From NCBI GenBank assembly GCA_031262595.1, contig JAISHI010000006.1:438-64437 (forward strand): a stretch of 64,000 nucleotides of DNA, read 5' to 3'. The position numbers were made by a program, and so were the translations under genes. Position 1 is the first letter of the stretch. Every line of letters begins with the position of its first letter. The notes beneath the pieces are model-generated. The model worked only from the letters and a program-made list of their open reading frames with translations, ran no database searches and was not told the origin of the DNA. The stretch is from Christensenellaceae bacterium (GTDB taxonomy: Bacteria > Bacillota > Clostridia > Christensenellales > UBA1242). Positions 5,557 to 20,381 of the stretch are shown one piece after another.

Positions 5557-5916
5557 ATGTCAAATATGTTGCTAACAATAAACAGGGATGATTTAATACA
5601 TCTGTATATTGCGGGATTAATTGTATTTGTGTTTTTGGTTTATCAAGTTTTAAGAGCACTAATTGACGGACACCGCTTCGATTGGACTTATATGGCGATA
5701 GTATGTCTATCCATAGCTGCGTCTCTACTATTTGAAGTCGCTAAATTAGTGTATATCGGATATATATCCTGTTGTTTGGTAACCTTAATAAAGGAAATTT
5801 ACAAACAAATTACTCCTGAAGAAAATAAGAAACAATTCAGTTGGGCGGATATTGTTGGATTAGGTATTTCGGCATTGGGTGTGACAGCAGAAATTGTTTT
5901 TGGCATACTTGGTTGA
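5557..5916 (+). CDS. Small hypothetical membrane protein
   Basis: About 120 aa with several hydrophobic helices. A GAGGTG SD lies 9 nt upstream of ATG 5557. The gene is AT-richer by eye than its neighbours. No family recognised. Confidence 0.4.
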   Translation: MSNMLLTINRDDLIHLYIAGLIVFVFLVYQVLRALIDGHRFDWTYMAIVCLSIAASLLFEVAKLVYIGYISCCLVTLIKEIYKQITPEENKKQFSWADIVGLGISALGVTAEIVFGILG

Positions 5917-5932
5917 ACATAAAAACAAAATC

Positions 5933-5966
5933 GGGCGAATAGGTAATCTATCCGCCCTTTTATTTT
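5933..5966. terminator. Bidirectional hairpin terminator between convergent genes
   Basis: GGGCGAATA..TATCCGCCC imperfect stem with T-runs on both strands. It ends the actin-like operon. Confidence 0.55.
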
Positions 5967-6835
5967 TAAAATAATCTAGTTTCCTTCTTATATTCTTCCC
6001 ATTCCGCCGCGCCGTGGCGTTTTGCGGATTGGCGTTCTGCCCAAGGCGTGCTGACAGCGAGAAACATAATCGTATTCGCGAGAGCGCCGAACGCAGTCCA
6101 CCACAGCTCGGACGAAACCGCAAAAACCGCGCCCCAAAGCCCCCACCAAAACAATATCTCGCCTAAATAGTTCGGGTGGCGTGAGGACTTCCAAAGCCCA
6201 ACGGCACAAATCCCGCTGTTTTTGCGGTTACCATTCTCGTCGACGGCATCGTAGAATTTATGTTTTTGCGCATCGCTTATAAGTTCTAAAAGAGTTCCTA
6301 AAATCATAACCGCTACGCCGATTAACGCGAACCAGCTAAACGCGGTCGACCCGAGCCCATAAACGAACGGGAACAAGCAACCATAAACGATTAGCGTCGG
6401 GAAAATTTGTATCCCGAAGAGGTTCGCGAGTGGGTAAAGTTTGCCCGATTTCGATTTTATCTCGTCATAGCGCCAATCTTGTTTCGTTAAATCCTTAAAG
6501 GTCGTTATCCAATTTATCGTTAACCGCACGCCCCAAAACTCCACGCAAACTAAAATTAAAATGTTCGTCGCGGAAAAATTCCCCGCTGAAATCATTAAAA
6601 GCGGAACGGCAATCATCGGCAAAACGCTCCAATACGGGTCGTAAACCGTTGCGTTATTAACAATTAAACTAAAAAGATAAACGACAACGGTTGCGGCGAT
6701 ATCCGCGATTAAAAAATTCAGCCAAATCGCAAACGGCGCAAACGCAAAAACGGCTACACCAACACCCACAGCGACTAAATACGTTATTAAAATATACGCA
6801 AGCCCTAAGTTCCTACTCGTTTTTAGTTTTAACAC
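5966..6835 (-). CDS. DUF1295 / steroid-5-alpha-reductase / ICMT-like polytopic membrane enzyme
   Basis: 289 aa, polytopic, with the C-terminal motif SSRHPNYLGEILFWWGLW. The GTG start abuts the stop codon of the upstream gene. Confidence 0.6.
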   Translation of the reverse strand: MLKLKTSRNLGLAYILITYLVAVGVGVAVFAFAPFAIWLNFLIADIAATVVVYLFSLIVNNATVYDPYWSVLPMIAVPLLMISAGNFSATNILILVCVEFWGVRLTINWITTFKDLTKQDWRYDEIKSKSGKLYPLANLFGIQIFPTLIVYGCLFPFVYGLGSTAFSWFALIGVAVMILGTLLELISDAQKHKFYDAVDENGNRKNSGICAVGLWKSSRHPNYLGEILFWWGLWGAVFAVSSELWWTAFGALANTIMFLAVSTPWAERQSAKRHGAAEWEEYKKETRLF

Positions 6836-7447
6836 TTAATTACTACCGCCGTTTTTATTTTCGAGGAATTTAAATAAGAAATCACGCCCCGCCGCCGAAC
6901 CTTCGGGTGCGCCTTTTCCGCCGCTAGCCCCCGGCAAAGCACCCGGTAAAGAACCGCCGCCGCTAAACGAGGCTGGCGCGCTAGGTGCTGGGGTTGGAGT
7001 TGAAACAGGAGCTTGCGCCGGTGCTGGAGTTGGGGATGGCGCAGGTCGAGGAGCCGGAGCCCCCGCTGGAGTTTGCGCAGGAGCTTGCATTGGAGTTGGT
7101 GCTGGTCTTGGCGCTGGCGCCGCGTATTGTTGTTGAGGCATCATGGGTTGCGACACCGCCGGTTGAGGCATCATGCCTTCCGCAGGATATCCAACAGATT
7201 GTAGGTTTACGCCGTAAGCCATAAGGCGCTGGTTCCCGAGACTAATAACCATCTGCCCCATCGCCTCAACTTGTTGCGTTATTATCACATTATATTGATC
7301 GTTAATCATGTCGGAATGTAAGGACGCGGTTATATTTTGCAACGACAAAACTACGGAGCGTATACCACTTATAATTGGTACACTCGCCAAAAACGCCGGA
7401 TTATTTTCGGCATTTTCAAGTAAAACTCCGTACTCTTGTAATGTCAT
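6836..7447 (-). CDS. Proline-rich protein immediately downstream of the actin-like ATPase (ParR/Alp7R position)
   Basis: 203 aa. An N-domain of about 95 aa is followed by a Pro/Ala-rich stretch (APAPRPAPTP, APAPRPAPSP), a Gly-rich segment and the C-terminus FLENKNGGSN. An AAGGAG SD lies 4 nt upstream. Confidence 0.6.
   Translation of the reverse strand: MTLQEYGVLLENAENNPAFLASVPIISGIRSVVLSLQNITASLHSDMINDQYNVIITQQVEAMGQMVISLGNQRLMAYGVNLQSVGYPAEGMMPQPAVSQPMMPQQQYAAPAPRPAPTPMQAPAQTPAGAPAPRPAPSPTPAPAQAPVSTPTPAPSAPASFSGGGSLPGALPGASGGKGAPEGSAAGRDFLFKFLENKNGGSN
6892..7162. repeat. Pro/Ala-rich low-complexity coding region
   Basis: Encodes ..APAPRPAPTPMQAPAQTPAGAPAPRPAPSPTPAPAQAP.. in the 203-aa protein. 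Confidence 0.8.
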
Positions 7448-7455
7448 ATTTCTCC

Positions 7456-8508
7456 TTAGAATTTACCAAGCAAATAGAAACCTTTAACGTTCGCCATAAC
7501 AGCGTTGTCTTGAAGAATAACGCGCGGGTCGTTGAATAATTTTTTAAGTTCTTTTTCAAGCAACATACAGCCGCCACCAGTAAGCACGATATGATAGAAT
7601 TTATTAAACTCGAGCCCTAAACTCATAACCGATTCATAAATTTTTTGCGCGAGCTCGCTTTTATAACGTTCAGCATAAGCCGTTAAATCGAATGTTCCGA
7701 ACGGAGTTTTAACGTTTGGCGAGTTTAATAACGCAACGTCGAGTTGATGCGCGTTTAGCGAATAAATCGACATCTCAGGCATTTTATTATTAACTTCTTC
7801 TTGAAGTAGCGCGATAAAATCCGAAACGCCCATGTCGAAACCGAACGTTCCTCTAACGCGGAAACTTTCTAACGTCGCAATATCAGTTGTTCCCCAACCA
7901 ACATCAAGCACCAAAGCGCGTTCCGCGAGGATTTCTTGGTTAAGACTGTCGCTCTTGTCGTCGTAAACGAACGAATATAACGTTCCTAGCGGTTGCGGAA
8001 CTACGATAACGTCAACGATTTCGAAAACAACGTCCTCAACTTTATCCCATTGAACAGATTTAACGGTATGTTTGCCGAGTAAATTTGCCTTAACTTCGTC
8101 GGTTACGGCTTTGTTTTTCGCTAACGTCGAAGGAACGCCAGTTACGACACGCAATCTATGATCTTGCCCCGTTTTAAGTATCGAAGTAATGCCGATAACT
8201 GCCTCGATAAGGAATTGCTGCGAATTATAACGATTGCGTCCGCGGCCGCCCGAACCTGTTGCCTCGATATCGCCAACCTCATAAACGCGGTTGTTATAAA
8301 GGAACATTTGATAGTCCGTTTTAAACGAGAAAACCAACCCAGAGTCGTTAATCTCTTTGATTGTATTGCGATATTCGATGCTCTCGTTATTATCAGTCCA
8401 AGCCTTAATAGTCGAGTTCGCAACGTCAATACCAACAATCTTGTTATATGGTTTCCCTTGATAGATATTGTTGCTCACTGTTTCCTCTTTTTTACCGAAT
8501 AATGCCAT
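7456..8508 (-). CDS. Actin-like ATPase of the ParM/StbA/Alp type
   Basis: 350 aa with the actin-fold motifs in order: phosphate-1 VGIDVANSTIK, phosphate-2 LVLDVGWGTTDIA, adenosine IVLTGGGCMLL. An AAGGAG SD lies 9 nt upstream. Confidence 0.8.
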   Translation of the reverse strand: MALFGKKEETVSNNIYQGKPYNKIVGIDVANSTIKAWTDNNESIEYRNTIKEINDSGLVFSFKTDYQMFLYNNRVYEVGDIEATGSGGRGRNRYNSQQFLIEAVIGITSILKTGQDHRLRVVTGVPSTLAKNKAVTDEVKANLLGKHTVKSVQWDKVEDVVFEIVDVIVVPQPLGTLYSFVYDDKSDSLNQEILAERALVLDVGWGTTDIATLESFRVRGTFGFDMGVSDFIALLQEEVNNKMPEMSIYSLNAHQLDVALLNSPNVKTPFGTFDLTAYAERYKSELAQKIYESVMSLGLEFNKFYHIVLTGGGCMLLEKELKKLFNDPRVILQDNAVMANVKGFYLLGKF

Positions 8509-8528
8509 TTTTGTTTTCTCCTTTTTAT

Positions 8529-9035
8529 TTATTTCGGCTCGCCTGAATGATTTGCGGCCGCTTTTTTCGATTCGATTTTATTTTTAACATAACCGAAACT
8601 TCTTTCTTTCATTTTCGGCGAGTTTATGTCGCCTATTTTTATGGAACATAGTCCATTTTTGTTTTTAAAGATTGAGAATAAGCCTGTTTTTGCGAACTCT
8701 ATTGCCCTGAAAACAAGAACATCAATGGGTCTCTCGTCTTTATAACAAACGACAGCAACATATTGCTCCGCGCTCGCCGTATCAATCAAATTAGCCGGAA
8801 ACTCTACGCGTTTATCGTTAATCTCCATGCCAAGAGGTAAAAAATCCCCAAGCGAACCGACACCTTCAACAGCCGATTTGGGCGCAATGAAGTTAAGATT
8901 TGCAAGCGCCGCTAGGTTTGTTTGGCTACAAAGAAAACTAAAATCTTGTTTCGCTTGCTTATTGATTGGCGAGTCCAAAAAGGTTTTCGGGCGCTCCCTA
9001 TCTACTAAACTACTAAGGTTTGAAAAATCTTCCAT
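8529..9035 (-). CDS. Hypothetical soluble protein (actin-like operon)
   Basis: 168 aa with no TM segment and no recognised domain. The ATG directly follows the upstream stop, and an AAGGAGG SD lies inside the upstream gene. Confidence 0.55.
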   Translation of the reverse strand: MEDFSNLSSLVDRERPKTFLDSPINKQAKQDFSFLCSQTNLAALANLNFIAPKSAVEGVGSLGDFLPLGMEINDKRVEFPANLIDTASAEQYVAVVCYKDERPIDVLVFRAIEFAKTGLFSIFKNKNGLCSIKIGDINSPKMKERSFGYVKNKIESKKAAANHSGEPK

Positions 9036-9806
9036 TTATTCGCCTCCTTCGACGTTTTCATCTTCGAATTGTTTCTTGCCCTTCGAAGTTATTCCAGCCG
9101 AACCGTATGTATCGATAGAGTTGAATCTTTTCATGTCGATGGCTTTTTGGGCGTTTGCTTTTTTTGTCTTTTCGATTTTTACCGTTTTCTTTCCTGCTTC
9201 CGCCGCAGTTGTTGCGCCAAACCCAGTGAGCGCGTTCATATCCTCGAAAGCCTTCGTAGTCGATTCTTCGATATTAACGGTTTTCTTTTCTTTAAGCGCC
9301 GCGTTGCTCGCCATATTATCGCCCGAAAATTGCGTCATAACCGAAACGCCTAACGCGCCTTGTTCTTTTTCAAAACTTGGCGGCGCAATAATCGAATCTA
9401 GGTTTTGTTGAACGAACATCCCCGCCGACATTGTATTTCGCAATTCAAAATCCGACATATTAGTTTTTGCTTTTGCCTCCGCGAACGCCGAAGCGATTTG
9501 GGCGTTTCTTTGGTTAATTTCCTTTTGTTTTCGATTGGCTTCCGCTTGCAAAAGTTCTTCTCGGCTAGGTTCACGGTCGCGCGCACCAAAAACCGAACTA
9601 ACGACATCTTGTTGCGCCTCTTTTTGAGCTTGTTTTTTAGCGTTTAATTCTTTTTTGCGCGCCGACGCCCCAGCTATTTTCTTTTTAAAAACTATAAAAT
9701 AAAGAGCTATCAAAACCGCAACAACCATAACCGCAGCAACAATCCCGATTATCAAACCGTCATTATTTTGAAGGGCTGGAGTCATAATGCAGTTTTGTAT
9801 TTTCAT
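9036..9806 (-). CDS. Bitopic membrane protein with a charged cytoplasmic domain (actin-like operon)
   Basis: I prefer ATG 9806 (AAGGAG SD 4 nt upstream) to TTG 9863, which is the -35 hexamer of an internal promoter. One TM segment (LIIGIVAAVMVVAVLIALYFIVF) is followed by a K/E/Q-rich region. Confidence 0.6.
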   Translation of the reverse strand: MKIQNCIMTPALQNNDGLIIGIVAAVMVVAVLIALYFIVFKKKIAGASARKKELNAKKQAQKEAQQDVVSSVFGARDREPSREELLQAEANRKQKEINQRNAQIASAFAEAKAKTNMSDFELRNTMSAGMFVQQNLDSIIAPPSFEKEQGALGVSVMTQFSGDNMASNAALKEKKTVNIEESTTKAFEDMNALTGFGATTAAEAGKKTVKIEKTKKANAQKAIDMKRFNSIDTYGSAGITSKGKKQFEDENVEGGE

Positions 9807-9833
9807 TTCTCTCCTTTTCTTATAATCACTTCT

Positions 9834-9863
9834 AATATAGAGGTTTTTGCTATTTGTTGTCAA
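9834..9863 (-). promoter_or_regulatory. Internal promoter TTGACA-18-TATATT inside the actin-like operon
   Basis: Lies in the only sizeable gap of the operon (9807-9895). It is followed by a leader of about 25 nt carrying an AAGGAG SD. Confidence 0.6.
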
Positions 9864-9895
9864 ACGAATTTATATGGGTTTAACGGTGGCGCTTT

Positions 9896-11068
9896 TTATT
9901 CTTCGCTTAGCATTTCTTTGAGTCTCGAAAGGCTAAACCCTAAATCTTTTTCAGGCGGCGCATCTTCTTTCGGCGGCGCGCTTTTTTTAGGTGTTTCCTC
10001 TTTTTTTATCGCACCTTCTTTTGGCGAACTAAACTCTAACTCTTTTTTAGGTGTTGCGCCCTCTTTCGGCGTTGCCGCCTCTTTTACCGCCTCTTTTACC
10101 GCCTCTTTTGCCGCCTCTTTTGCCGCCTCTTTTTTTGGTGGAACAAAATCCGGCTCTGGGTCGGGGCCACCAATAGGTTTATACACTACTTCTCGAGTTT
10201 GTATAGTTTTCGCTGGTTCGCGTTTTTCTTGTTTTTCTTTACCCTTCTCTACAATCCCCCTGCCGCGGTTAAGCTTAGCCGCACGCTCTTCAAGAATTTG
10301 GCTCCAAATCCCCTTTTCGGCGTTAATAGGCTCCCTAATAACAGCATATCTATAATCAAAATTTTGAACTAGTTTCTCGCCCGATTTCTTTCGCATATAA
10401 AAACGGCGCAAATCAACTTTAACGGTCGAAACCCGTTCGCCGTCGGTTGTTAGTTGCATAATATAAAGGACTTCTCCGACGAGCGTCGCCGAGTATTGGA
10501 TTAAATCTGTGCTTTTATAATCAAAAAAAGTCGCGAGCAATTTACCTTTATAAGTATAAAACGCCAGAACTTTTTGCTCAACGCCTGTATCCGGGTCTTT
10601 ATCGACATAATCAATTAAAAACGTTTCGTTATTAAAAAGGTCAACCATTAAGTTGAGCTTCGTAAAATTCATAATAATCTCGTCAGCCGAGCCCGCTTTC
10701 TCTCCTAGTTTATGAAAGGAAACTTGCGATTGAACCCCGTCGCGATGGCTTAAAGAAGTTATAAAGAATAATTTATCCCCCATGCGGCGAATATTCGTTT
10801 TTGATTGAACGGGAACAGTCGCCAAATCCCAGACAGCTTTCTTTTCGTCGTCAAAAAAAACAATTTGATGATAAAGGCTTTGAAATTGTTCCGTATAGGA
10901 TATTAAGATTTTCTCGTTTGGATTTTTATACGAATGTATCGCGGATTCAAACTCCATCTTCGTTTCATGCGTCGAGATATACTTATCCCCACGTATATCG
11001 CGCGTCCATTCATCCCTAACGAGGTTTTCGTTTAACTCAATCTCTTTGCCGTCAATCAATATACTCAT
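9896..11068 (-). CDS. Hypothetical soluble protein with a (KEAA/V)x5 repeat (actin-like operon)
   Basis: 390 aa with no TM segment. A beta-rich N-domain is followed by a charged, Pro-rich C-terminal region. Its start overlaps the upstream gene as ATGA. Confidence 0.6.
   Translation of the reverse strand: MSILIDGKEIELNENLVRDEWTRDIRGDKYISTHETKMEFESAIHSYKNPNEKILISYTEQFQSLYHQIVFFDDEKKAVWDLATVPVQSKTNIRRMGDKLFFITSLSHRDGVQSQVSFHKLGEKAGSADEIIMNFTKLNLMVDLFNNETFLIDYVDKDPDTGVEQKVLAFYTYKGKLLATFFDYKSTDLIQYSATLVGEVLYIMQLTTDGERVSTVKVDLRRFYMRKKSGEKLVQNFDYRYAVIREPINAEKGIWSQILEERAAKLNRGRGIVEKGKEKQEKREPAKTIQTREVVYKPIGGPDPEPDFVPPKKEAAKEAAKEAVKEAVKEAATPKEGATPKKELEFSSPKEGAIKKEETPKKSAPPKEDAPPEKDLGFSLSRLKEMLSEE
10075..10134. 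repeat. Tandem 12-bp coding repeat x5
   Basis: CCGCCTCTTTT[A/G] x5 on the plus strand, encoding (KEAA/KEAV)x5 in the 390-aa protein. Confidence 0.9.
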
Positions 11069-11667
11069 AATATCACCCCAACGGATGTTTCCTCGTTTTT
11101 CTCTTTCTCTTTTCCGCCAGCCGCAGGGTTTTCCGCGCTCTCGCGGTCGTATTTATCAGTCGATTCTAACGGTTTAAGATTCCCGTGTTTTTTCTCAACG
11201 CGGAAATCATCGATGTTTTCGATTAAATAGTGAACGATAACAGTCGAATACGGGCTAGTTGCTGAAAGATAGTATTTACCCTTTTCAAAAACAATGCCCC
11301 GCGCGTTAACGTAATATCTTTCACCGTCGCCGTCGAATTGCTCGTCGCCCGTATCATTCTCTAAAAAACGGAAGGTTTCGTATTGGTATACTCGCTTGCC
11401 GTTGTCGCCTAACGTAAAGTATTTAAACGAAACAACGGATTTATTTTTAGCGGCTTTGCGGAACTTTTTAAGTTTAAACTTTGGATTATATTTTAAACTC
11501 GTAGTTAATAAAGCAATAAACAAAGCGAAAGCTAAGATTAGGCACGCGCCCGAAAAAAGCAATGCTTCAAGCGGCATATCCTTCCCTAAAAAACTTATCG
11601 CTAGTATCTTTGCCATTTCCCTACTTATTGCCTCCATCTCTATTGCGAGCTCTTTTCGCTTCTTCAA
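11065..11667 (-). CDS. Bitopic membrane protein (actin-like operon)
   Basis: About 200 aa. One TM segment (LLFSGACLILAFALFIALLTTSL) is followed by KYNPKFKLKKFRK, implying a cytoplasmic C-domain. The start is uncertain: TTG 11667, ATG 11637 or ATG 11616. Confidence 0.5.
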   Translation of the reverse strand: MKKRKELAIEMEAISREMAKILAISFLGKDMPLEALLFSGACLILAFALFIALLTTSLKYNPKFKLKKFRKAAKNKSVVSFKYFTLGDNGKRVYQYETFRFLENDTGDEQFDGDGERYYVNARGIVFEKGKYYLSATSPYSTVIVHYLIENIDDFRVEKKHGNLKPLESTDKYDRESAENPAAGGKEKEKNEETSVGVIL

Positions 11668-13990
11668 TTTGCGCCTTACGCGCAGCCCGTATATCTTCTT
11701 TACTTACTTGTCCAACGCTCCTACCCGATTTAAGGTCTTGCATATAGCCAGAGAGGTCGAATTTCGATTTATCCGTTCTTTCTGAAACGAGTTCTGCTTT
11801 CATTAACTTATTGCGTTTAGCATTCGTCAATAGCATGACTAATAACCCAATAAGCATAAGCGGAACGATTATTAAAGGTATCAATATCGTTAGTTTAAGC
11901 CCCGTTTTAATATCGTTTTCTATGTTAATCAGCGCAATATTGCCGTTCGAAGAAATCCAACTTTGATTTGCCGCCAATAACTCCTCGCTAAGCCTTATAC
12001 TTAAAGTTTTGCCGGATAATGAAGCGTCATCGCCGAAATCCTTATAACTTTTCCCGCCAATTTTCCAATCTCTTATATCGCTGCTTGCGTTAAGGTCGTA
12101 TTCAAGCGTAATAACGTCGCCAACCTTGAATTTTGTCTCGCCGCCCTCGAAATTAACCTTATCGTCCGTTGCAATTTTTATACCAAGCGTTTTAAATACC
12201 GCTGTTATAGACCTATCACTCCCGACACTAAAACTCGCCGTATTTCCGTCAATTTCGCTTGTTGCGATGTTTGTAAAATGGCTGAATTGATATACGCCGT
12301 TAACTTTGCTTTTTGCCGTTATGCGGATATTTGCGTCTTTCCCGAAATAATATTTACCGTTGTCATCTGAAACATCTACCCATTCGTCATCGCCAACATT
12401 CTCGGTAATCTCAATGGTTCCAAACTCGGATTGCCCGACAGTTAACGTAAACTCGCGCCTAAAAGTCGCGCTAATTTCAACTTTATTATTAGAAAAATAT
12501 GTATCAAGGAAATCCTCATCAATCGCAAGCCCGTTATTAGAAATAGTAAAGTCATCAAGTCTATCGCCGCTAGCGTTAGGAACAGCGCGTTTTATCTTAA
12601 ACCCTTCGAAAACATATGCATGCCCGCCTAATATAATTTTAGAACTTTCCAAACTTTCGCCGTCATAAGTAATGCTCTCTAAAACGTCTAAAATATGAAT
12701 CTTTCCGCTTGCGCGGTCGCTATCAAAATTCGCAGCAATAAGAGGATTGATGCCCGTTATAGCGTTTCCGTCGCTGTCAACAGCCTTAATAGAAAGCGTT
12801 AAGTCTTTCGATGTGAAATTAAGCGTTATGCCGCCGTTTGCGTTTATTGGGGTTGTAGTATGTGGAATTGTCAGCGCGCCGTCATACTCGATATAATCGC
12901 CCTCGATAGTTGTTATCGTTACCGTCGAACCCTCGTCAAGAATAATATAATTTTCACCCGAGAATTGCCTATTGCCGCCGTTCGGGCTAAATACGATAGG
13001 GCTTTGAACTACTGTTTGTATGGCGTCGTCGAAAAGCGCACTATCAACATTAGTGTTATTGTCGATAGCCCCATTAACTGTAAAGGAATACGTTCGAACA
13101 TATGCGCCGATAATATTTATTTCGCCGTTTAAAACATGGCTGTCTATAAACTCCTCGTCAACGGTTACTGAATACGCATCCTCGAAGGTTAGCCGTGTGC
13201 CGAGGTTGTCGTAATAGCCCGCCGTGCTATACTCTATAACAGGATACGCGAAACGCTTTGTCGTATCCGCCGCCGACAACGAGTTCATAAGCCGAAGTTC
13301 GTCGCCGAGCATAACCTTTAAAGTATCGCCTGTCGTTCTTGAAATATTCTCTACTTCAAAATATCCGCCTAGCTCGGGGTTTTTCGTATAAGTCGTTCCG
13401 TTAGTATACGCCGTATCAACGTTAACTTCATATTGCAATGGCGCAAAATGCAATTCAAACTTATAATCTATATTAATGGATGGTAATACGAACAAATACG
13501 TTCCGCTGCCTAGACCGCTTTCGGTTAAAGTTATGGTTTCGCTTCCATTGGATGTAAAATTGCCGCTAGTATACACCCCGCGAACAACATTAACCGCAAC
13601 AAGGTCATAGTATCTAATCGGCGCGATTGTTATTAAGAACTCATCTCGGGTTGCGTTGGTATCTTGGAAGAATAAGTTTATGTTATTAAGTCCGAGCGCC
13701 ATAGGTCTGCCGTTGCTGCCCGTAATCCTAAAATCAACGCCGCTCATATTTTTCGGAGCGTCCGTCCAACTCTCGCCAAGGTCATAACGACCGTTGCCGT
13801 TCGTATCTATATAATTCTCACCCGCGTCATAACGTCCGTTAGGGTCAACAACCGCCGTTCCTATTATGGCTGGTCGAGTAGAATCCAACGTCGCCGCAGA
13901 GACTTCTAATTTCGGCGCCTGCGCGAACATAAGCGAAAGCCCAAACGATAGCGCAACAATTCCAAACAATAAATATTTGACTTTTTTCAT
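11621..13990 (-). CDS. Type-I surface protein, 789 aa, with a C-terminal TM segment and a 75-aa cytoplasmic tail
   Basis: Signal peptide MKKVKYLLFGIVALSFGLSLMFAQA, a large ectodomain, a TM segment (LTILIPLIIVPLMLIGLLVMLL) and a long tail. It is paralogous to the 944-aa neighbour. Start and stop overlap as TAATG. Confidence 0.75.
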   Translation of the reverse strand: MKKVKYLLFGIVALSFGLSLMFAQAPKLEVSAATLDSTRPAIIGTAVVDPNGRYDAGENYIDTNGNGRYDLGESWTDAPKNMSGVDFRITGSNGRPMALGLNNINLFFQDTNATRDEFLITIAPIRYYDLVAVNVVRGVYTSGNFTSNGSETITLTESGLGSGTYLFVLPSINIDYKFELHFAPLQYEVNVDTAYTNGTTYTKNPELGGYFEVENISRTTGDTLKVMLGDELRLMNSLSAADTTKRFAYPVIEYSTAGYYDNLGTRLTFEDAYSVTVDEEFIDSHVLNGEINIIGAYVRTYSFTVNGAIDNNTNVDSALFDDAIQTVVQSPIVFSPNGGNRQFSGENYIILDEGSTVTITTIEGDYIEYDGALTIPHTTTPINANGGITLNFTSKDLTLSIKAVDSDGNAITGINPLIAANFDSDRASGKIHILDVLESITYDGESLESSKIILGGHAYVFEGFKIKRAVPNASGDRLDDFTISNNGLAIDEDFLDTYFSNNKVEISATFRREFTLTVGQSEFGTIEITENVGDDEWVDVSDDNGKYYFGKDANIRITAKSKVNGVYQFSHFTNIATSEIDGNTASFSVGSDRSITAVFKTLGIKIATDDKVNFEGGETKFKVGDVITLEYDLNASSDIRDWKIGGKSYKDFGDDASLSGKTLSIRLSEELLAANQSWISSNGNIALINIENDIKTGLKLTILIPLIIVPLMLIGLLVMLLTNAKRNKLMKAELVSERTDKSKFDLSGYMQDLKSGRSVGQVSKEDIRAARKAQIEEAKRARNRDGGNK

Positions 13991-16824
13991 TAGTTCGCCC
14001 CTCCGTTATCCTTATTATTTAGAAGGTCGCTGAGCATACTGCCCATATTAATTCTACCCTCTCCTTGCCTACTCCTTACGAGCGCTTCCTTATAAGCCTT
14101 CTTTTTCGATTTCATGCGTATCATAAGAATAAGGCACGCCAAGAGTAATAACGGAACTATAACCGCCGCCGCGATTAACAAGATAAACATGGTTTTGTCC
14201 GCCGTTGTTTCCGGAATAATATCAAAACTAATTCCTCCTCCCGCGAACAACTCGTCAAGTTTTTCTTTCGTTAAAACAATCGCAACCGAACTCGAATCAT
14301 ATTCTTCACCGTTTATCTTCATGCCCGCGGCGTTATAGTTCTTGTCTGGCTCGAACTTTATCGTTAAAGTGTCGCCAATCTTAACTTTTTCCGCAGAGCC
14401 TAACTCATGCCCATTAACGAGGGTTTTAAGCGTTCCGTTCGTTTCTTCTATGCCTTTTGTTATCACGATGTCGTGTTCTATCGCCCTAAAATTAAGGAAA
14501 ATAGTATTATTTCCTTGCGCAAGCGGTTGCTCCCATTCAAGCGGCTCGCTCGCGTTAGTTCTCGCCTCGCCATTAACCGTAAAATCGACAAACTCATAAT
14601 AATCGTCGGCGATCGCAACGATTTTAAGCGTTGCATTCTCGGAAATGTTCTCGTTTACCGCGTCGCTGATTTGAACGCTTGTCCATTCGTTAGTATTTGC
14701 CCCTTCGGGTATTTGCGCGACGCCGTTTATATAAAGTTCAAACTTATTAACGTCGGTTGCAACATCATTATTAACCTCGATTGCGATTAAGGCTTTTTGT
14801 CTAAATACTTGTATTAAAGTTATCTCGCCGTCTTCGTTAAGATATTTAGTTAATTCTTCAAAAGTTAGATTAATAAGCTTGCCCTCGGGGTCAAGTTCCG
14901 CGCCGTCAAGAATGCTATCAATCCCCGCGACTATTTCAAAACCTTCAGGGGTTTCGCTCGTTAAATCTACAATATTACCGTCAGCCTTTTTAAGTTGATA
15001 GCCAATAAGGTTATACCCTTCAACTGCTATTTTTTCGATAGGCTCAATAGCATCGCCTTCCCTTATATTTATTTCGCTTGCTCCAAATATATCCCCGCTC
15101 TCATCGACGGTTTGGATTAAAACAGTATATTCAACGCGGACAAACCCTATATTAAACTCTTTGTCCGCACCTAAACTAAAAACAAAAACTATGTCGCCGT
15201 TAACCGTAGTAGTCTCCATTCCTTGAGCGATAAGTTCATCTTCAAATTCGCTCGCGAGTTTATTTGTTTCGGACGGATCAACCGTTACTCGAATAGAGGT
15301 CGTCGGTTCTAGATATTTCGGCTTGCTTGGATTCGTGATTACCGTCCAAACGTTATCTGGGTCGGTTGTTTTATGATACTCAACAATAAAATCGCCCATA
15401 AGTTCGTCCGCGGCGCTCGCGTAATCAACCTTTAAACTATTATTTCGCTTATATTTCGCGGAAATTGTTATCTTGTCGCCGCTTAAATAGTTATCAAGAA
15501 ACGCTTGATTAACAATCATCGCCGAGAAACCGTTTTGATCCGCGAATTGGATATCACCATAACCGAAATACCCAACTAAATTATAACGGTTATTATCTCC
15601 GAGTATTTTGTTTCTAATCGTTATTAAGTTGTTGCCATTTTCAATAGAAACCGCGTTCTTTAAAAGTTCAATAGATATTCCCTCGCTAGCTGATGTCGCT
15701 AAGACCTCTCCCGTGCCATCTAAAACTGTCTTAATCTCAACGTTATACGAAATCGCTTTAAAGCTAACAAAGATTGTCGCCGCGTCATCCGTTCCTATTG
15801 AATCCTCATCAAGCGTTATCGCATCCGTCTCATTGCTATATAGGTTTCGATTGTCTGCCGAGTTATAAACTCTTGTCCCATCTATAAAAATTGTATCGAC
15901 TGTATAGTAATCATTAGGCTGAACAATAAGTTTAACTATATCAAACGTGCCATTTCGAACAACTTGCGTCGCCTCCGCGCCCGTTCCGAAAGCCCCGCCA
16001 ATCGAGTTGTTAACGGAAAGATGGACTGAACCGTTAGGCGCGTTCGTCGTAGCCGTAACCGTTATGGAATCCGCCGCTAAAACCGCCCTAAATTTAATTT
16101 CTTTATCCTCGTCGTCTATATATTTCGTAATAAAGTCCGGCGTTAATAACGAAAACATATCTGGATATTCGAGCGATGATATGAAATGCCAATCGTTGTC
16201 TACGCCGAATGCCTCCCAAGAAAGAACGCTGCCTCCCGTAAGACTTCCCGTCGTATATAAACGGTTTGTTTCGCCGCGCTTGACTGTCCCTTTTTCCGAC
16301 GCCGAAGAAACCGCCGCCCCGCCTTCTGTTCCAACTGATGTTAATTCGTATTCAATCGGCGTCCAAATAGCGTAAAGTATTATGTCCGAATATAACCATT
16401 CCCCAGTCCACTCGCCCGGCCCTCGCCCTATTTGAAATTCAGGGTGATTTGCTGGGTATAAAGCTTCCGCGGGATCCGTGCAAGAAGGGTTTGACGACCA
16501 ACCGCCGAAAATATAACCCTTACGGTTTTTAAGTAACTCAACTGCCTGACTGAAAGTACTATATTTAGGGTGCATAACAACTGAACCAACCATGCCTGAA
16601 ACAGCAATATCGCCAAATCCGGTTTCGCGGTTATCGTTTGCGTGAAGCTCTAATCTATACCTCTCAGTTCGTGGGTCAGTAGCGGCCGAAACTGCTGTGT
16701 TTGCTGTTATATTACTTTGAAGTGCCTCACTCGCGAACGCGCTAAGCCCAGCAACGCCGAATAACAACGCAAACGCGAGAATAACGCCGATAAAGAGTTT
16801 CTTCATATGTAATATTGTCCCCAT
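13990..16824 (-). CDS. Type-I surface protein, 944 aa, with a C-terminal TM segment and a 42-aa cytoplasmic tail
   Basis: Signal peptide, a Listeria-Bacteroides-type repeat (GYIFGGWSS...LYAIW), beta-rich modules, a TM segment (MFILLIAAAVIVPLLLLACLILMI) and a tail ending DLLNNKDNGGAN. Confidence 0.75.
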   Translation of the reverse strand: MGTILHMKKLFIGVILAFALLFGVAGLSAFASEALQSNITANTAVSAATDPRTERYRLELHANDNRETGFGDIAVSGMVGSVVMHPKYSTFSQAVELLKNRKGYIFGGWSSNPSCTDPAEALYPANHPEFQIGRGPGEWTGEWLYSDIILYAIWTPIEYELTSVGTEGGAAVSSASEKGTVKRGETNRLYTTGSLTGGSVLSWEAFGVDNDWHFISSLEYPDMFSLLTPDFITKYIDDEDKEIKFRAVLAADSITVTATTNAPNGSVHLSVNNSIGGAFGTGAEATQVVRNGTFDIVKLIVQPNDYYTVDTIFIDGTRVYNSADNRNLYSNETDAITLDEDSIGTDDAATIFVSFKAISYNVEIKTVLDGTGEVLATSASEGISIELLKNAVSIENGNNLITIRNKILGDNNRYNLVGYFGYGDIQFADQNGFSAMIVNQAFLDNYLSGDKITISAKYKRNNSLKVDYASAADELMGDFIVEYHKTTDPDNVWTVITNPSKPKYLEPTTSIRVTVDPSETNKLASEFEDELIAQGMETTTVNGDIVFVFSLGADKEFNIGFVRVEYTVLIQTVDESGDIFGASEINIREGDAIEPIEKIAVEGYNLIGYQLKKADGNIVDLTSETPEGFEIVAGIDSILDGAELDPEGKLINLTFEELTKYLNEDGEITLIQVFRQKALIAIEVNNDVATDVNKFELYINGVAQIPEGANTNEWTSVQISDAVNENISENATLKIVAIADDYYEFVDFTVNGEARTNASEPLEWEQPLAQGNNTIFLNFRAIEHDIVITKGIEETNGTLKTLVNGHELGSAEKVKIGDTLTIKFEPDKNYNAAGMKINGEEYDSSSVAIVLTKEKLDELFAGGGISFDIIPETTADKTMFILLIAAAVIVPLLLLACLILMIRMKSKKKAYKEALVRSRQGEGRINMGSMLSDLLNNKDNGGAN

Positions 16825-16832
16825 ATACCTTG

Positions 16833-16861
16833 ATTTTATGTATAAGGCATCTCAAAGTCAA
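16833..16861 (-). promoter_or_regulatory. Promoter of the surface-protein/actin-like operon, TTGACT-17-TAAAAT, with the -10 box 8 nt from the ATG
   Basis: Hexamers read directly from the sequence. Confidence 0.6.
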
Positions 16862-16917
16862 ATACTCCGCAAACCATTGTCTAAAAATTTTTTAATAGTT
16901 TTTATAATATTTTAAAT

Positions 16918-17004
16918 TGGTGCTCGGGATCGGACTTGAACCGATATGAGGTTGCCCTCGAGGGATTTTAAGTCCCTTGCGTCTGCCGATTTCGCCACCC
17001 GAGC
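16918..17004 (-). tRNA. tRNA-Leu (anticodon UAA)
   Basis: 87-nt cloverleaf. Acceptor stem GCTCGGG/CCCGAGC, anticodon loop CTTAAAA, long variable arm, T-loop GGTTCAAGTCC and an encoded CCA. Confidence 0.9.
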
Positions 17005-17007
17005 AAA

Positions 17008-17035
17008 AACCGTATCGCGATTAAACGATACGGTT
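17008..17035 (-). terminator. Hairpin after the 1080-aa gene, overlapping the tRNA-Leu promoter and leader
   Basis: 10-bp stem AACCGTATCG/CGATACGGTT with an 8-nt loop, followed by TTTTT directly before the tRNA 5' end. Confidence 0.5.
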
Positions 17036-17064
17036 ATTATATTGCTAGTATTTCAGTTTGTCAA
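17036..17064 (-). promoter_or_regulatory. tRNA-Leu promoter TTGACA-17-TATAAT
   Basis: Perfect consensus hexamers immediately after the stop of the 1080-aa gene. Confidence 0.7.
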
Positions 17065-17078
17065 TTTAAAGTTTAGGG

Positions 17079-20000
17079 TTATGCCGTAACTTTATCATAA
17101 ATTCCCAAAACTATATAGCCATACCCGTCGCCACCTAATCCATAACCTGATGGAAGAGCAACTTGAAGGTTGTCGTCGCCCATAAGTTTTGAGAAACCTT
17201 GGGTTTCCGCGGGATTGAACGCGCCGGCGGGAACAAGCCCTTGACGAAGTGTATGAACTATCGGTTTGTTGTCTTCGTCTTTGTCTTCTTTATCTTCCCA
17301 ATTAAGTATGTATTGGGCGTTTGCCATAAAGTCAGAGAGTTTAGCGCCGCCTGGGAGTGGCGTATCTTTGTTGAAAAGTTCCATAATTCCATCCGCTACA
17401 ACCCCCGCCATACTTGCCATCCCGAATGGACTAAGTATTTCTCCAAGCGCTACAACAAGCTCGAGTTCAGTAGCCTCGAACATATCTTCTATTGCGTTCT
17501 CATCAGGTGTTGATGTATCCTTAATTTTAGGTTTACTCGAAGCGCGCATCAATATAGGAGCGTTATATTTTGCTTTAACAGTTCCGTTGCCGCCACCTTC
17601 AGCTATGTTCGCATATATTGTTTTTGTAGGATCAAAAGCCTCAAGCCCATCAGCGGGAGTCGCGCCCTTCGCAGGATTTCCAACGATTGTATTATCAATC
17701 GGACCCGCCAAAGGCATATAGCCGTTAAGAACCATAAAAGGCGAATCGAAAGTTATAGGATTATATATCTCAACATCTTTGCCGATAGTTATTTCAAGGT
17801 CTCGAACGCCAATACCGCCTTCTATCTCTGGATTAAGCATTGCCGAAATAACTGCATTCGAGAGTGCCTCAACTTGTGTAGTATTAGTTATTCCTAGTTG
17901 TCCTGCCTTAGTTTCAATACCAGTTTTAAGCGTTGCAAGAACCATGTCGTCGGCCGCGGTTAGCGCGCTGTTTATCCCATAACTCGTATCGTCAACAACT
18001 ATACCGAAACCAGCGTTGTTAATAATTTTTGTTTCGCCTGTGAGTTTTAAAATTGTTGAAGCATACGCATAGATGCCGGAGTTAAAGTTATTTTCGATTA
18101 TACAATTATTAAGTTCCGCGCCGCCAACTTCGTTATCATTATGCATCCAAACCGCAATCGTCACTTTACTTATATCAACATTATCAAGTACCATATGCGC
18201 TTTATAAGAGAGGACTCCTTGTATCGCTGATGCATTATGAGCGTATCGCTGGTTTATGAGATATTCCCAAGCATTTTGGGCAGCACTTACAATTACATTG
18301 CCCTCCGAGTCCTTTCTCTCGACACCAACATATGGATTGCCTGCCTTGTCTTCTGGCCAAAGCTCGTGGCCTGTGCCCCAATCGCTAGGCATGTTTGCAT
18401 GAAGCTCTTCGATAAGCCTTGGCGAACTGCCCTCGATTGTTAAGTTGTTGATTGTTGTTTGTGCATTTACTGTCTCGCCGTCGCGAAGGTCTTGGATCAT
18501 AAATATGCCTATGTGGTTTGAAGCTATTGCCTCGCTTATGTGGGTATCGAGCAACGCGCCAAAGTTTCCGTTTGCTTCTGTCGACGCAGCAACAGGATAC
18601 TTACTTGCGTCAACAGTAAAGTTATTTCCTTCAACGGTGAGGCCAAAATCGGAATTTGCGGCGGTCGGATCCGCTTTAATTCGCCTTTTAAAAGGTGCGC
18701 CGGATTGGCGATACATCTCATCCGAGTCCCAATTATCAAAGATGTTTTGAACTGTGCCTTCATTAGCCGCAATATACCCCGCGACAGGATTCGAGCCTAA
18801 AATTAGGGCTTGATTAGGGGTGTATTCCTCTATCCAAGTCGAAGCCTCGTCGTCAAGTTCATCCGCGTCCCAAACTTGGTTATAACTTTCAGGCGCTTTA
18901 TCGGCGTCTTCCGCTACTAACGTATCCCATTGAGCTTTCGTCATATTATAGTATTCTGGCGTTATGTTCGCGAGCATGAAGATTTGTTTAACGCTCGTAT
19001 CCGCGAATTTTTTCGAGAGTTCGAAACTATTATAAACGTTAACCGCGTTAGCTCCCCCAGCAATATTAACTTTAATTATAATAGGGCTAACATTAGCGAA
19101 GTTATAAAGTGGCTCAACGGAAATTTCGTACTCCCCGCTGCCAACCGAGAAATCGAGCGCAACAGTTTCTTCCTCAACAATATCTACCGTTTTAATACCA
19201 GTCGCCGTAGTAGAAACTACTTTTTCTTTAAAGAAGTTCACTTTCTTCAAAGTTGCGATGCTAACTTCCGTGCCTGCGTCATTTTTCACGGTTATTTTAT
19301 ATTGGTTATCCGCGTTCGCGATAGTCTCGTCGACGTCGCCTATGATCGATGTTTGCGATAAATCAAGCCTGAAATCGTTTTGGGCGATATTAAGAACGCC
19401 GCTACCCACTTGATCGAAGTTGTCGCCCCAAGTTAACATATTTGTATAAGGAACAACTTCCATTTTAAGGATTATGTCCTCTTCGCCATCTTTAACGAAT
19501 TTAATTTTCGTATCCCCGAGCGCGTTTGCTATGAGTTTATTTTCGTCGATAATAATCGCCTCTTCGTCATCCGAAACGCTCGAAACCGTCGCTCCTTCCG
19601 CAGATACCACCGCATATCCCTCAGGCATTGTTAAGCTAAGCTCAACGCCTTTCGCGATTATAATATGCTTGTCTGTTTCTCCGCTCTCGTCGATTTTTTC
19701 TTCAATAAAGAGTGCGCTATCGCTTGCGAAAATCGAACCCGATTCCGTAAGGGCGCCGTCCTCAAATGAAACGGCTGCAAATTGTTGCGATTCAACTGGA
19801 TTGATTAAGTTTATACGTTTAGAGATTGTTGGTTTATTTTCAACGGCAATCTTAACCTCCGCGCCGTTCGTTTCGGAAAATCCTGCTTCATACGAAATCG
19901 TTACGGTATAAGTGTTTTTACTGTTCGCAACTTTTTGAACTTCGCCGTAGCTGATGAGTTCGCTCGAAGGCGTAATAACTACCTCGTTTTCCGTCGCGTG

Positions 20001-20321
20001 AACAGGCAAAAGCGTGAACGTAATCGTTGTTGATCCGCTCGAAGGCGCTTTCGCCACGTATTGGTTTTTAGGCTCTAAGTTCGACGCATGATAACGCCCG
20101 CCCGCCTGAATTTGTAAATCTAAAACGGGCTTAGTCGGGTCTATAACGTCGGTATCCATCCCATCAATTCCGCCGCTTATACTATCGATAACCATGCTAC
20201 TAACGTTGTATTTGTCTGGCTTTTCGAGGTCGCGGCTTGGGTCGAGGAAAACAACCGCGAGAACGATACTCGACACGACAACAACGCCTGCTATTATAAG
20301 TGCTATAACTTTTTTATTCAT
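17079..20321 (-). CDS. Large N-terminally anchored surface protein with parallel beta-helix-like repeats
   Basis: 1080 aa. N-terminal TM segment (VIALIIAGVVVVSSIVLAVVF) and repeats such as NNCIIENNFNSGIYAYAS and NNAGFGIVVDD. An AAGGAG SD lies 5 nt upstream. Confidence 0.7.
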   Translation of the reverse strand: MNKKVIALIIAGVVVVSSIVLAVVFLDPSRDLEKPDKYNVSSMVIDSISGGIDGMDTDVIDPTKPVLDLQIQAGGRYHASNLEPKNQYVAKAPSSGSTTITFTLLPVHATENEVVITPSSELISYGEVQKVANSKNTYTVTISYEAGFSETNGAEVKIAVENKPTISKRINLINPVESQQFAAVSFEDGALTESGSIFASDSALFIEEKIDESGETDKHIIIAKGVELSLTMPEGYAVVSAEGATVSSVSDDEEAIIIDENKLIANALGDTKIKFVKDGEEDIILKMEVVPYTNMLTWGDNFDQVGSGVLNIAQNDFRLDLSQTSIIGDVDETIANADNQYKITVKNDAGTEVSIATLKKVNFFKEKVVSTTATGIKTVDIVEEETVALDFSVGSGEYEISVEPLYNFANVSPIIIKVNIAGGANAVNVYNSFELSKKFADTSVKQIFMLANITPEYYNMTKAQWDTLVAEDADKAPESYNQVWDADELDDEASTWIEEYTPNQALILGSNPVAGYIAANEGTVQNIFDNWDSDEMYRQSGAPFKRRIKADPTAANSDFGLTVEGNNFTVDASKYPVAASTEANGNFGALLDTHISEAIASNHIGIFMIQDLRDGETVNAQTTINNLTIEGSSPRLIEELHANMPSDWGTGHELWPEDKAGNPYVGVERKDSEGNVIVSAAQNAWEYLINQRYAHNASAIQGVLSYKAHMVLDNVDISKVTIAVWMHNDNEVGGAELNNCIIENNFNSGIYAYASTILKLTGETKIINNAGFGIVVDDTSYGINSALTAADDMVLATLKTGIETKAGQLGITNTTQVEALSNAVISAMLNPEIEGGIGVRDLEITIGKDVEIYNPITFDSPFMVLNGYMPLAGPIDNTIVGNPAKGATPADGLEAFDPTKTIYANIAEGGGNGTVKAKYNAPILMRASSKPKIKDTSTPDENAIEDMFEATELELVVALGEILSPFGMASMAGVVADGIMELFNKDTPLPGGAKLSDFMANAQYILNWEDKEDKDEDNKPIVHTLRQGLVPAGAFNPAETQGFSKLMGDDNLQVALPSGYGLGGDGYGYIVLGIYDKVTA

Positions 20322-20381
20322 TTTTTCTCCTTTATTTTTTAAGTTAAACCGATTTTTTAATTAAACTCCCCGCATACGCTC

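Follow-up and report, generated by a model that had tools for sequence, protein, structure and literature searches.

We analyzed a 64,000-nucleotide stretch of contig JAISHI010000006.1 from a Christensenellaceae bacterium (GenBank assembly GCA_031262595.1; the whole stretch is called the window), in which eight co-directional minus-strand genes hold all the coordinates of an original prediction about an actin-like protein and the surface proteins encoded with it. The operon occupies approximately 11 kb of the minus strand, from a promoter near 17050 to a terminator near 5945, and both positions are consistent with a single transcription unit. A promoter-like site with a perfect TTGACA-17-TATAAT (12/12; 17036-17064) lies upstream of the gene for surface protein A (944 aa; 13990-16824), which combines a signal peptide, a repetitive ectodomain, a C-terminal transmembrane (TM) segment and a 42-residue tail. 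Next come the genes for its paralog, surface protein B (789 aa; 11621-13990), a small membrane protein of up to 200 aa whose true start is probably 3' of the TTG (11065-11667), a 390-aa protein with a globular first ~196 residues (9896-11068), a bitopic membrane protein (256 aa from ATG, 9036-9806; 275 aa from the TTG at 9863, 9036-9863), a 168-aa globular protein (8529-9035), an actin-like ATPase of 350 aa (7456-8508) and a 203-aa Pro-rich protein that we call the adaptor (6836-7447). A gene for a DUF1295 membrane protein (5966-6835) abuts the adaptor stop codon, and a terminator-like hairpin (5933-5957) closes the transcription unit; all of these features are on the minus strand.

The actin-like protein exceeds the cut-offs of the Pfam models ALP_N (53.4 bits; cut-off 26.3), MreB-like_C (44.8; 27.8) and ParM_N (29.5; 27.4), whereas it scores 79.9 against a cut-off of 417 with the NCBIfam equivalog model for ParM and also falls far under the cut-offs of PRTRC_D and FcmB. 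The protein is therefore a member of the superfamily that lies outside all named equivalogs. Its AlphaFold2 (AF2) model has a predicted local distance difference test score (pLDDT) of 87.2 and a predicted TM-score (pTM) of 0.85, and the best Foldseek matches to this model in the PDB are all ParM-type (3js6, 6ixw, 9rmi, 4a61, 5ec0 and 8x1i; E values of 1e-17 to 1e-20, TM-scores of 0.6-0.77). The leading proteins are pSK41 ParM, pCBH ParM, CorM, R1 ParM, Alp12, Alp7A and Dh-cParM1, with MreB, MamK and Hsp70 trailing at ~1e-11, and the protein also matches the PHROG "partition protein" family. Judged from the predicted structure, the actin-like protein has a ParM fold.

For comparison we gathered 2 genome loci, 61 metagenome loci (mostly from termite gut, rumen and fermenters) and 13 loci found by exact protein look-up. 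Relatives of the actin-like protein form ~120 clusters (at 90% identity) at 52-69% identity, with no close relative among them; they come from metagenome-assembled genomes of Clostridia, Bacillota and Christensenellales, and NCBI and JGI annotate them as ParM/StbA, with "ParM/StbA family protein" as the most specific name. Their contigs, up to 381 kb long with sporulation genes adjoining, carry GerA, SpoIVA and SpoIID, and the host lineage of the operon is uncultured endospore-forming Clostridia. Because the relatives carry these three proteins, the hosts are walled spore-formers, and the analogy with a wall-less host and a Mycoplasma-like gliding "leg" was dropped on the same grounds. The A and B genes are always paired, in the order A then B, and lie either upstream of the core genes as in the window (A-B-390N-[TM]-168-actin-adaptor, where 390N is the N-domain of the 390-aa protein) or downstream of them (core-A-B); across many genomes the pair is kept next to the actin module in these two gene orders. 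The most distant loci, at 52-58% actin identity, hold only a 390N-like gene, the actin-like gene and the adaptor gene, with spore-germination genes adjoining. The minimal system is thus a filament, an adaptor and one globular protein, to which the surface proteins are a frequent, physically linked accessory.

The gene that immediately follows the actin-like gene encodes a Pro/Gln/Met-rich protein at all loci that have it complete. A single-sequence search with the adaptor returned the window protein and one true relative only, and orthologs were then gathered by position and by profile search. These proteins end in ...LPG(M/A)GGG...(A/K)xGRD(Y/F)(L/I)Lx(L/V/I)(L/I) followed by 2-5 residues, and the helix consensus G-R-D-(Y/F)-(L/I)-(L/M)-x-(L/V/I)-(L/I) is near-invariant in ~150 orthologs. 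The C-terminal peptide is kept in 34 locus orthologs and the motif in 115 of the 120 proteins from the profile search, 95 of which read GRDYLMELLKK. In the window the conserved peptide is GRDFLFKFL (residues 187-195; 6863-6889), and conservation in this otherwise low-complexity protein is far higher at the extreme C-terminus than anywhere else. The AF2 model of the adaptor, built on a 61-sequence alignment, predicts helices at residues 3-15, 17-45 and 51-77 (pLDDT >90) without a beta-strand, then a disordered middle that includes a Pro/Ala-rich spacer of ~100 residues, and finally a helix at residues 186-199, outside which residues 200-203 are placed. The three-helix N-domain (residues 1-80) is acidic, with a median isoelectric point (pI) of 4.8 among orthologs and 2 K+R against 6 D+E in the window protein. 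It matches no PDB fold at E <1, and neither the AF2 fold, the PDB comparison nor the pI revealed a ribbon-helix-helix (RHH) DNA-binding domain. With no beta-strand, no PDB fold match and an acidic pI, the adaptor is not an RHH-type ParR. Nor did Tandem Repeats Finder report iterated parC-like repeats in 5900-20500; apart from low-complexity repeats in coding sequence, it returned a single weak array with a 12-bp unit and 2.2 copies (16888-16913).

What the adaptor does have is the ParR-type layout of a flexible region followed by a highly conserved terminal helix. ParR binds the hydrophobic groove of ParM through its C-terminal helix, as arcadin-2 does on crenactin and WH2-type peptides do on actin, and in the CorMR system of Anabaena CorR cannot bind CorM without its C-terminal helix of 13 residues (bioRxiv 10.1101/2025.06.27.661541). 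Because ParR, CorR and arcadin-2 dock by C-terminal helices, we propose by analogy that the adaptor helix GRD(Y/F)LLxLL is likely to be the filament-docking element and would sit in the hydrophobic groove of the actin-like subunit. The original prediction had suggested, by analogy with ParR, a docking-type peptide on this adaptor-position protein and proposed to test whether the terminal 10-15 residues are the most conserved. The final ~12 residues of the adaptors are indeed their most conserved element, but the conserved part is the helix and not the NKNGGSN that had been singled out. The window adaptor alone, against the 34 locus orthologs and the 115 motif-bearing database sequences, carries an eight-residue extension after the helix (ENKNGGSN, residues 196-203; 6839-6862), which is unique to this genome. 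In one clade (L020, L022, L023, L025 and L029) the adaptors end in GPAYLLKVINGE(I/V) or GKGAAYLLSVIEG, and a different conserved membrane protein of ~500-610 aa, ending in ...EKRLEEFxxxxVYVYD, is encoded upstream of the 390N-like gene.

We next consider the two surface proteins. Both have an N-terminal signal peptide and a C-terminal TM segment, FILLIAAAVIVPLLLLACLILMI in A (14119-14187), which contains a conserved IPL-type motif, and LTILIPLIIVPLMLIGLLVMLL in B (11828-11893). A Lys/Arg-rich stretch directly follows each TM segment, so by the positive-inside rule the tails of 42 residues in A (13993-14118) and 68 residues in B (11624-11827) should be cytoplasmic. The A tail has a MLSDLL core (14020-14037) and the B tail a conserved block, YMQDLKSGRSVGQVSKEDIRAARK (11675-11746). 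The two proteins match each other by BLAST, and the TM-plus-tail module, with IPL in the TM segment and ΦΦxDL(K/R) (Φ, hydrophobic) as the tail core, is conserved in their orthologs. By these sequence comparisons A and B are paralogs with a common TM and tail module. The (V/I)IVPL(L/M)L that the original prediction saw in both TM segments is present, and its gap-free alignment of the two tails (7/27 identical) is real and reflects this true paralogy, as BLAST and ortholog conservation attest.

The consensus of the B-type (789-type) module is TM(...P..IPL...)-KKKYAxIKAELVxxNRxKxxFxxxxFIxDL(K/R)xGKxVGQVTxEDVKxAMKxxKK, and that of the A-type (944-type) module is TM-...KKKQYAxLxxKRQxGxxMMGQxExLKKLRxDMxx, with variants GKFLSDLKNDDKDK (L069), TADYINKLRSGEDTTQGGK (L019) and TDYVQKIKSGEAQAGRDSLKDKQ (L074). 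When the last 94 residues of the 789-aa protein were used for a library-wide HMMER search, 51 representatives came up. Information per column in a 40-sequence alignment of the 789-type tails is highest in DL(R/K)EGK.VGQVT.EDVK.AMK and drops to zero across the final 10 residues of the window protein. Conservation of the tail motif equals or exceeds that of the TM segment and the ectodomain in the 789-type profile. No LPXTG or PEP-CTERM motif precedes either TM segment, and no sortase or exosortase gene was found among the operon products scanned. A sorting-signal reading of the tails was rejected, given the lack of both motifs and tails of 42 and 68 residues with conserved internal motifs. The window itself offers a contrast in a 1198-aa protein (38734-42330, plus strand) of the classical short-tail type, with a TM segment and a short basic tail ending in ...IRKSRKRKAAVQ, and no LPXTG was seen in its last 70 residues. 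Some 789-type proteins (P0244-P0247, P0249, P0253, P0259, P0287, P0291 and the protein at 479-2440 of L022) run on for ~100-150 residues beyond the conserved tail. This extra part contains repeats of TIVDxxGxVVAxLxxDGSIxDxxGKxFA as well as a Pro-rich linker and would form an additional cytoplasmic domain.

The feature that first drew attention to the operon was the shared NK(D)NGG(A/S)N ending of three of its products. The quoted C-termini are all present in the sequence, the 944-aa protein ending in ...SMLSDLLNNKDNGGAN, the 203-aa protein in ...RDFLFKFLENKNGGSN and the 789-aa protein in ...EEAKRARNRDGGNK, as is the looser ...EDENVEGGE of the 256/275-aa protein. Four polar "GG" ends thus lie in the operon (ENKNGGSN, 6839-6862; ENVEGGE, 9039-9059; NRDGGNK, 11624-11644; NKDNGGAN, 13993-14016). 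When the C-terminal peptides of window open reading frames (ORFs) with 150 aa or more are compared in pairs, the ends of the 203-aa and 944-aa proteins score highest of all 1485 pairs. Among 538 C-termini from all loci, no sequence other than adaptors reaches a score of 33 except the 944-aa tail, and shuffles of this tail reach the 203/944 score with p ~7e-4. The codons of the two NK(D)NGG ends differ at synonymous sites; the likeness is at the protein level and not at the DNA level, and recent gene conversion between the two ends was rejected for this reason. As a conserved signature peptide, however, the ending does not hold up, since it is absent from the orthologs, an outcome that the original prediction had itself named as refuting: we found it in 0/133 other adaptors, 0/11 other 944-type tails and 0/39 other 789-type tails. 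The nearest relative of the 789-aa protein (P0243, with a 71% identical tail) alone ends in ...KKARDGGNR. Within the window, "GG" occurs in the last seven residues of 4/8 operon proteins as against 1/44 other genes, and among orthologs in 3/133 adaptors, 2/39 789-type tails and 2/11 944-type tails, with 5.7% in background ORFs; on these ortholog counts a "GG" terminus was rejected as a family trait. Based on this distribution, the NK(D)NGG(A/S)N ending is an appendage restricted to the lineage of this genome. The corrective value of the comparison is that the eye-catching end is lineage-specific and that the functional candidate is the helix just before it.

We then compared the tails with the adaptor end. 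A position-specific scoring matrix (PSSM) from 27 distinct adaptor helices finds its best tail positions on the tails' own cores (FIxDLK and ALKKLR), with negative scores, and a single motif common to adaptor and tails was rejected as PSSM evidence. In terms of sequence the three families each have their own motif and hold in common only the pattern ΦΦxxΦ. The original prediction of a common peptide on the membrane-protein tails and the adaptor is supported in part: A and B do share a conserved tail module that is syntenic with the actin module, but by PSSM no peptide is common to it and the adaptor. FIxDLKxGKxVGQV and GRDYLL presumably resemble the WH2 of WIP/WASP, but WH2 membership was dropped because the Pfam WH2 model (LLxxIxxGxxLKKV-type) found no match; at E values up to 10, Pfam returned no WH2 and only a spurious thioredoxin match for seven tail and adaptor peptides. 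A weaker form of that prediction survives: in a lineage-matched comparison, the last 20-22 residues of the A tails have a mean local score of 18.8 against the adaptor of their own genome and 15.0 against the adaptors of other genomes (n = 12 loci, p = 0.001; p = 0.011 without the window), and 4/12 A tails beat their own shuffles against adaptors at p < 0.05. The pair from L019 reads DYINKLRSGE versus DYLLKIINGE, and in L074, a locus fetched after the mimicry idea arose, the A tail ends in ...AQAGRDSLKDKQ and the adjoining adaptor in ...KAAGRDYLLSLLGEK. The lineage-matched signal suggests that 944-type tails have come to mimic the adaptor end convergently in three or four lineages, including that of the window.

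A number of results weigh against a link between the tails and the filament. With the exception of the A tail of L019 (9.1, p = 0.0005), the adaptor-helix PSSM does no better on tails than on shuffles, and in hydrophobic moment the motifs do not stand out from shuffles either. Without both the window and L019 the same-locus test of A tails gives p = 0.10, the 789-type (B) tails show no same-locus likeness to the adaptor (p = 0.46), and the largest 944-type clade (MMGQxEALKKLREDM) is unlike adaptors. Lastly, several loci with full flanks (L014, L068 and L071) have the core genes and no A or B proteins nearby, from which it follows that the surface proteins are accessory, and not obligatory, to the filament system.

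The remaining operon products add further conserved parts. The N-domain of the 390-aa protein (~196 residues) and the 168-aa protein are kept in nearly all loci, the 168-aa gene directly upstream of the actin-like gene in most of them, and neither has Pfam or PDB relatives. Orthologs of the 390-aa protein have ~170-230 aa and lack its K/E/P-rich extension. This window-specific extension (~190 residues; 9899-10480, minus strand) contains (KEAA/KEAV)-type repeats with a 12-bp period and 4.9 copies (10075-10133) and ends in the amphipathic LGFSLSRLKEMLSEE (9899-9943). Proteins of the 168-aa family share a strongly conserved ending, ...(Q)YSFG(Y/N)V(L/I)KN(L/I), after which the window protein adds ESKKAAANHSGEPK; the likeness of this ending to the adaptor helix (YLLKLL) is probably superficial and the ending part of the globular fold. 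Members of the 256-aa family are bitopic: the TM segment is N-terminal and the tail is long and rich in K/E. Their gene lies between the 390N-like and 168-like genes (L001-L072). Near the C-terminus the orthologs have the motif (F/Y)(D/N)VM(G/N)QF(G/D)K, in place of which the bitopic proteins of L005 and L007 have DQL(K/Q)KMR(G/E)E, a motif much like that of the 944-type tails in L013 and L016. A comparison of 944-type tails with the C-termini of the small bitopic proteins gave one striking pair with a score of 46, against a background contaminated by orthologs. For the small membrane protein at 11065-11667, a homolog was found only in the nearest relative, L073, which comes from JGI sample 3300042599 and has a 71% identical 789-type tail.

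Outside the eight genes, the DUF1295 gene lies within the promoter-terminator unit of the operon here, and other loci have no DUF1295 gene at that position. Its product has weak matches to ICMT, PEMT and steroid reductases, and any tie between this protein and the lineage-specific C-terminal extensions would be purely speculative. Three further proteins are encoded directly upstream of the operon (17079-20321 and 20382-24777, minus strand): one of 1080 aa, anchored at its N-terminus and with a weak beta-helix match, one of 572 aa that is a polytopic membrane protein, and one of 908 aa that fuses a TMEM164-like membrane domain to an ABC ATPase. In the other loci inspected, none of the three was seen beside the actin module. 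The window also has housekeeping flanks (UvrA, triose-phosphate isomerase and enolase).

Taken as a whole, we lean toward the explanation that this operon encodes a repurposed ParM-adaptor cytoskeleton with membrane proteins as its cargo or anchor. In this model a ParM-type ATPase would work with partners that each end in a disordered stretch and a short conserved motif. The C-terminal helix of the adaptor would dock in the hydrophobic groove of the actin-like subunit, as in ParR, CorR and arcadin-2, and the filament would have as its cargo or anchor the operon's membrane proteins and not DNA. That the cargo is not DNA is very likely, given the acidic three-helix N-domain, the absence of a parC and the chromosomal context. 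The tails of the surface proteins are probably coupled to the filament system, because of the synteny and the conservation of the tails. The coupling could be direct, with the 944-type end mimicking the adaptor helix in some lineages, a plausible route, though less likely than not, or could pass through another operon protein (the adaptor N-domain, the 168-aa or the 390-aa protein), which is possible though tentative. In either case the outcome may be that giant surface proteins are positioned, clustered or moved along the cell. The strongest version of this proposal, in which giant surface proteins would be linked mechanically across the membrane to a dynamic ParM-type filament, tail helices (including that of the small bitopic protein) would compete with the adaptor for the groove, growth or treadmilling would position or move the adhesins and tail ends would co-evolve with the adaptor end by lineage, is rather unlikely as a complete picture; if true, it would be a bacterial counterpart of the coupling of adhesin tails to actin in eukaryotes.

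Several other explanations have to be set against this. The adaptor helix alone might bind the filament, with the motifs of the surface and bitopic protein tails held by the adaptor N-domain, the 168-aa protein or the 390-aa N-domain, such that the adaptor would bridge its cargo to the filament as ParR bridges DNA to ParM. Such purely indirect coupling would account for the 789-type motif (DL(K/R)xGKxVGQVTxEDVKxAMK), which at ~25 residues is very specific, longer than a simple groove-binding helix and unlike the adaptor helix, and it would give a role to the confidently folded and conserved adaptor N-domain, which has no assigned partner, and to the conserved 168-aa and 390-aa N-domain proteins, which have no known function. 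However, the mimicry of the adaptor end by 944-type tails of the window, L019 and L074 would be explained more simply by direct competition for one site, and distant loci keep the adaptor N-domain without adjoining surface proteins; we consider indirect coupling alone a possibility, and not a probability. A less likely alternative severs the tails from the filament altogether and makes them a generic anchoring, sorting or signaling module whose synteny reflects co-regulation only. The loci with core genes and no A or B would fit, as would tail motifs that are family-specific and unlike the adaptor helix, but it is hard to reconcile with an A-B pair kept by the actin module in two gene orders and many genomes, with a tail motif as conserved as the TM segment and ectodomain or more so, and with tails of 42-68 residues that lack LPXTG and PEP-CTERM and are far longer than classical sorting tails, of which the window's 1198-aa protein supplies an example.

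The helix and the residues after it can also be read in other ways. If the NK(D)NGG(A/S)N or GGNK end itself were the recognition peptide of several operon products, serving in docking or in C-terminal modification or recognition, the similarity of the 203-aa and 944-aa ends (the most similar C-terminal pair in the window, p ~7e-4, and alike at the protein level only), the excess of "GG" ends in the operon (4/8 versus 1/44) and the DGGNR kept by the nearest 789-aa relative would be explained. We find this improbable, as the ending is missing from all other orthologs, AF2 ends the helix before residues 200-203, the statistical tests are post hoc, and a disordered tail would be expected to have a polar G/N/K-rich end once past a helix C-cap. 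Equally improbable is that the adaptor helix is an amphipathic membrane-targeting helix of the MinD/FtsA kind, with the N-domain binding the filament and the likeness to ParR superficial. Its ΦLxxLΦ followed by G or K (DFLLALLGGG, DYLLELLKK) resembles the end of E. coli MinD, whose terminus ...KGFLKRLFGG we take to be similar to the adaptor ends. CorR shows that ParR-like adaptors can gain membrane-binding helices. Lipid-binding helices usually conserve amphipathicity only, whereas the near-invariance of G-R-D-Y/F in ~150 orthologs is typical of a specific protein contact; in addition, the helix has a net charge of no more than about +1 and an unexceptional hydrophobic moment, and ParR, CorR and arcadin-2 all bind their actin-like partners by the C-terminal helix. 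Finally, the ParM fold of the ATPase, the PHROG match and the ParM/StbA labels would all be accommodated by an ordinary ParMRC DNA-segregation cassette left by an integrated plasmid or phage, but the chromosomal housekeeping context, the acidic three-helix adaptor N-domain without a beta-strand, the lack of iterated parC-like repeats and the conserved membrane and surface-protein partners make this origin very hard to credit.

The proposed membrane-linked system can be placed among known actin-like systems. Like ParMRC of R1, pSK41 and C. botulinum pCBH, it has a ParM-fold ATPase followed by a small adaptor gene whose product ends in a conserved helix after a flexible region. Unlike ParMRC, it is chromosomal, its adaptor has an acidic three-helix N-domain in place of an RHH dimer, there is no parC array, and it adds a ~100-residue Pro-rich spacer, extra conserved genes and giant TM-anchored surface proteins. 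Since the RHH domain and parC, two defining features of ParMRC, were looked for and not found, the operon is not a member of that family. CorMR is a chromosomal ParM/ParR pair that has passed from DNA segregation to service as a membrane-associated cytoskeleton, a change that we propose for the operon as well, and CorM is among the best structural matches (TM-score 0.74-0.77). CorR has an (RHH)2 fold with an N-terminal amphipathic membrane helix, and MinC has a disordered extension with a short helix that is predicted to enter the CorM pocket used by the CorR C-terminal helix (bioRxiv 10.1101/2025.06.27.661541). The operon differs in the three-helix bundle at the adaptor N-terminus, in phylum and in having no Min link, and its membrane contact would come from the bitopic protein and from giant surface proteins with conserved tails. 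Genome-encoded ParMs of Firmicutes (Dh-cParM1 and Cb-cParM) have been suggested to work beyond plasmid segregation (PMC12270681). They too are chromosomal ParM folds in Clostridia-type genomes, and Dh-cParM1 has the highest TMq (0.77), but their cassettes are defined by ParR-like neighbors and none is described with a Pro-rich GRDYLL adaptor or surface-protein partners (PMC12270681).

Resemblances outside the ParM family are looser. In crenactin/arcadin-2, WH2 and thymosin β4 systems a short C-terminal helix after a disordered region binds the hydrophobic groove between subdomains IA and IIA, as we propose for the adaptor; these systems, however, have no sequence homology to it, and arcadin-2 is a depolymerizer and not a cargo adaptor. 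The layout of the adaptor, a Pro-rich stretch and then a short helix, we take to recall WASP/WIP-type proteins. The magnetosome chain of MamK and MamJ is presumably similar in concept, with an actin-family filament tied to membrane cargo by disordered repetitive linkers or tails, but its fold class differs from the ParM class found here (1e-20 versus 1e-11 for MamK) and it has no homologous component. Links of integrin through talin, and of apicomplexan adhesin tails, to actin are analogies only. We found no description of this gene cluster in the literature.

ParM-type actins are textbook plasmid segregators, and CorMR, described very recently, is the only chromosomal ParM system shown to be repurposed for a membrane-associated role. 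With this operon, repurposing would have taken place a second time, independently and in another phylum, with an adaptor that does not bind DNA and with transmembrane surface proteins as its probable cargo. It is conserved in ~120 actin clusters (90% identity) from Clostridia of termite gut, rumen and fermenters, and brings with it four or five protein families without known relatives. One ATPase, a 9-residue adaptor peptide and two or three tail motifs would make up a compact set of parts for coupling a bacterial actin to the cell envelope.

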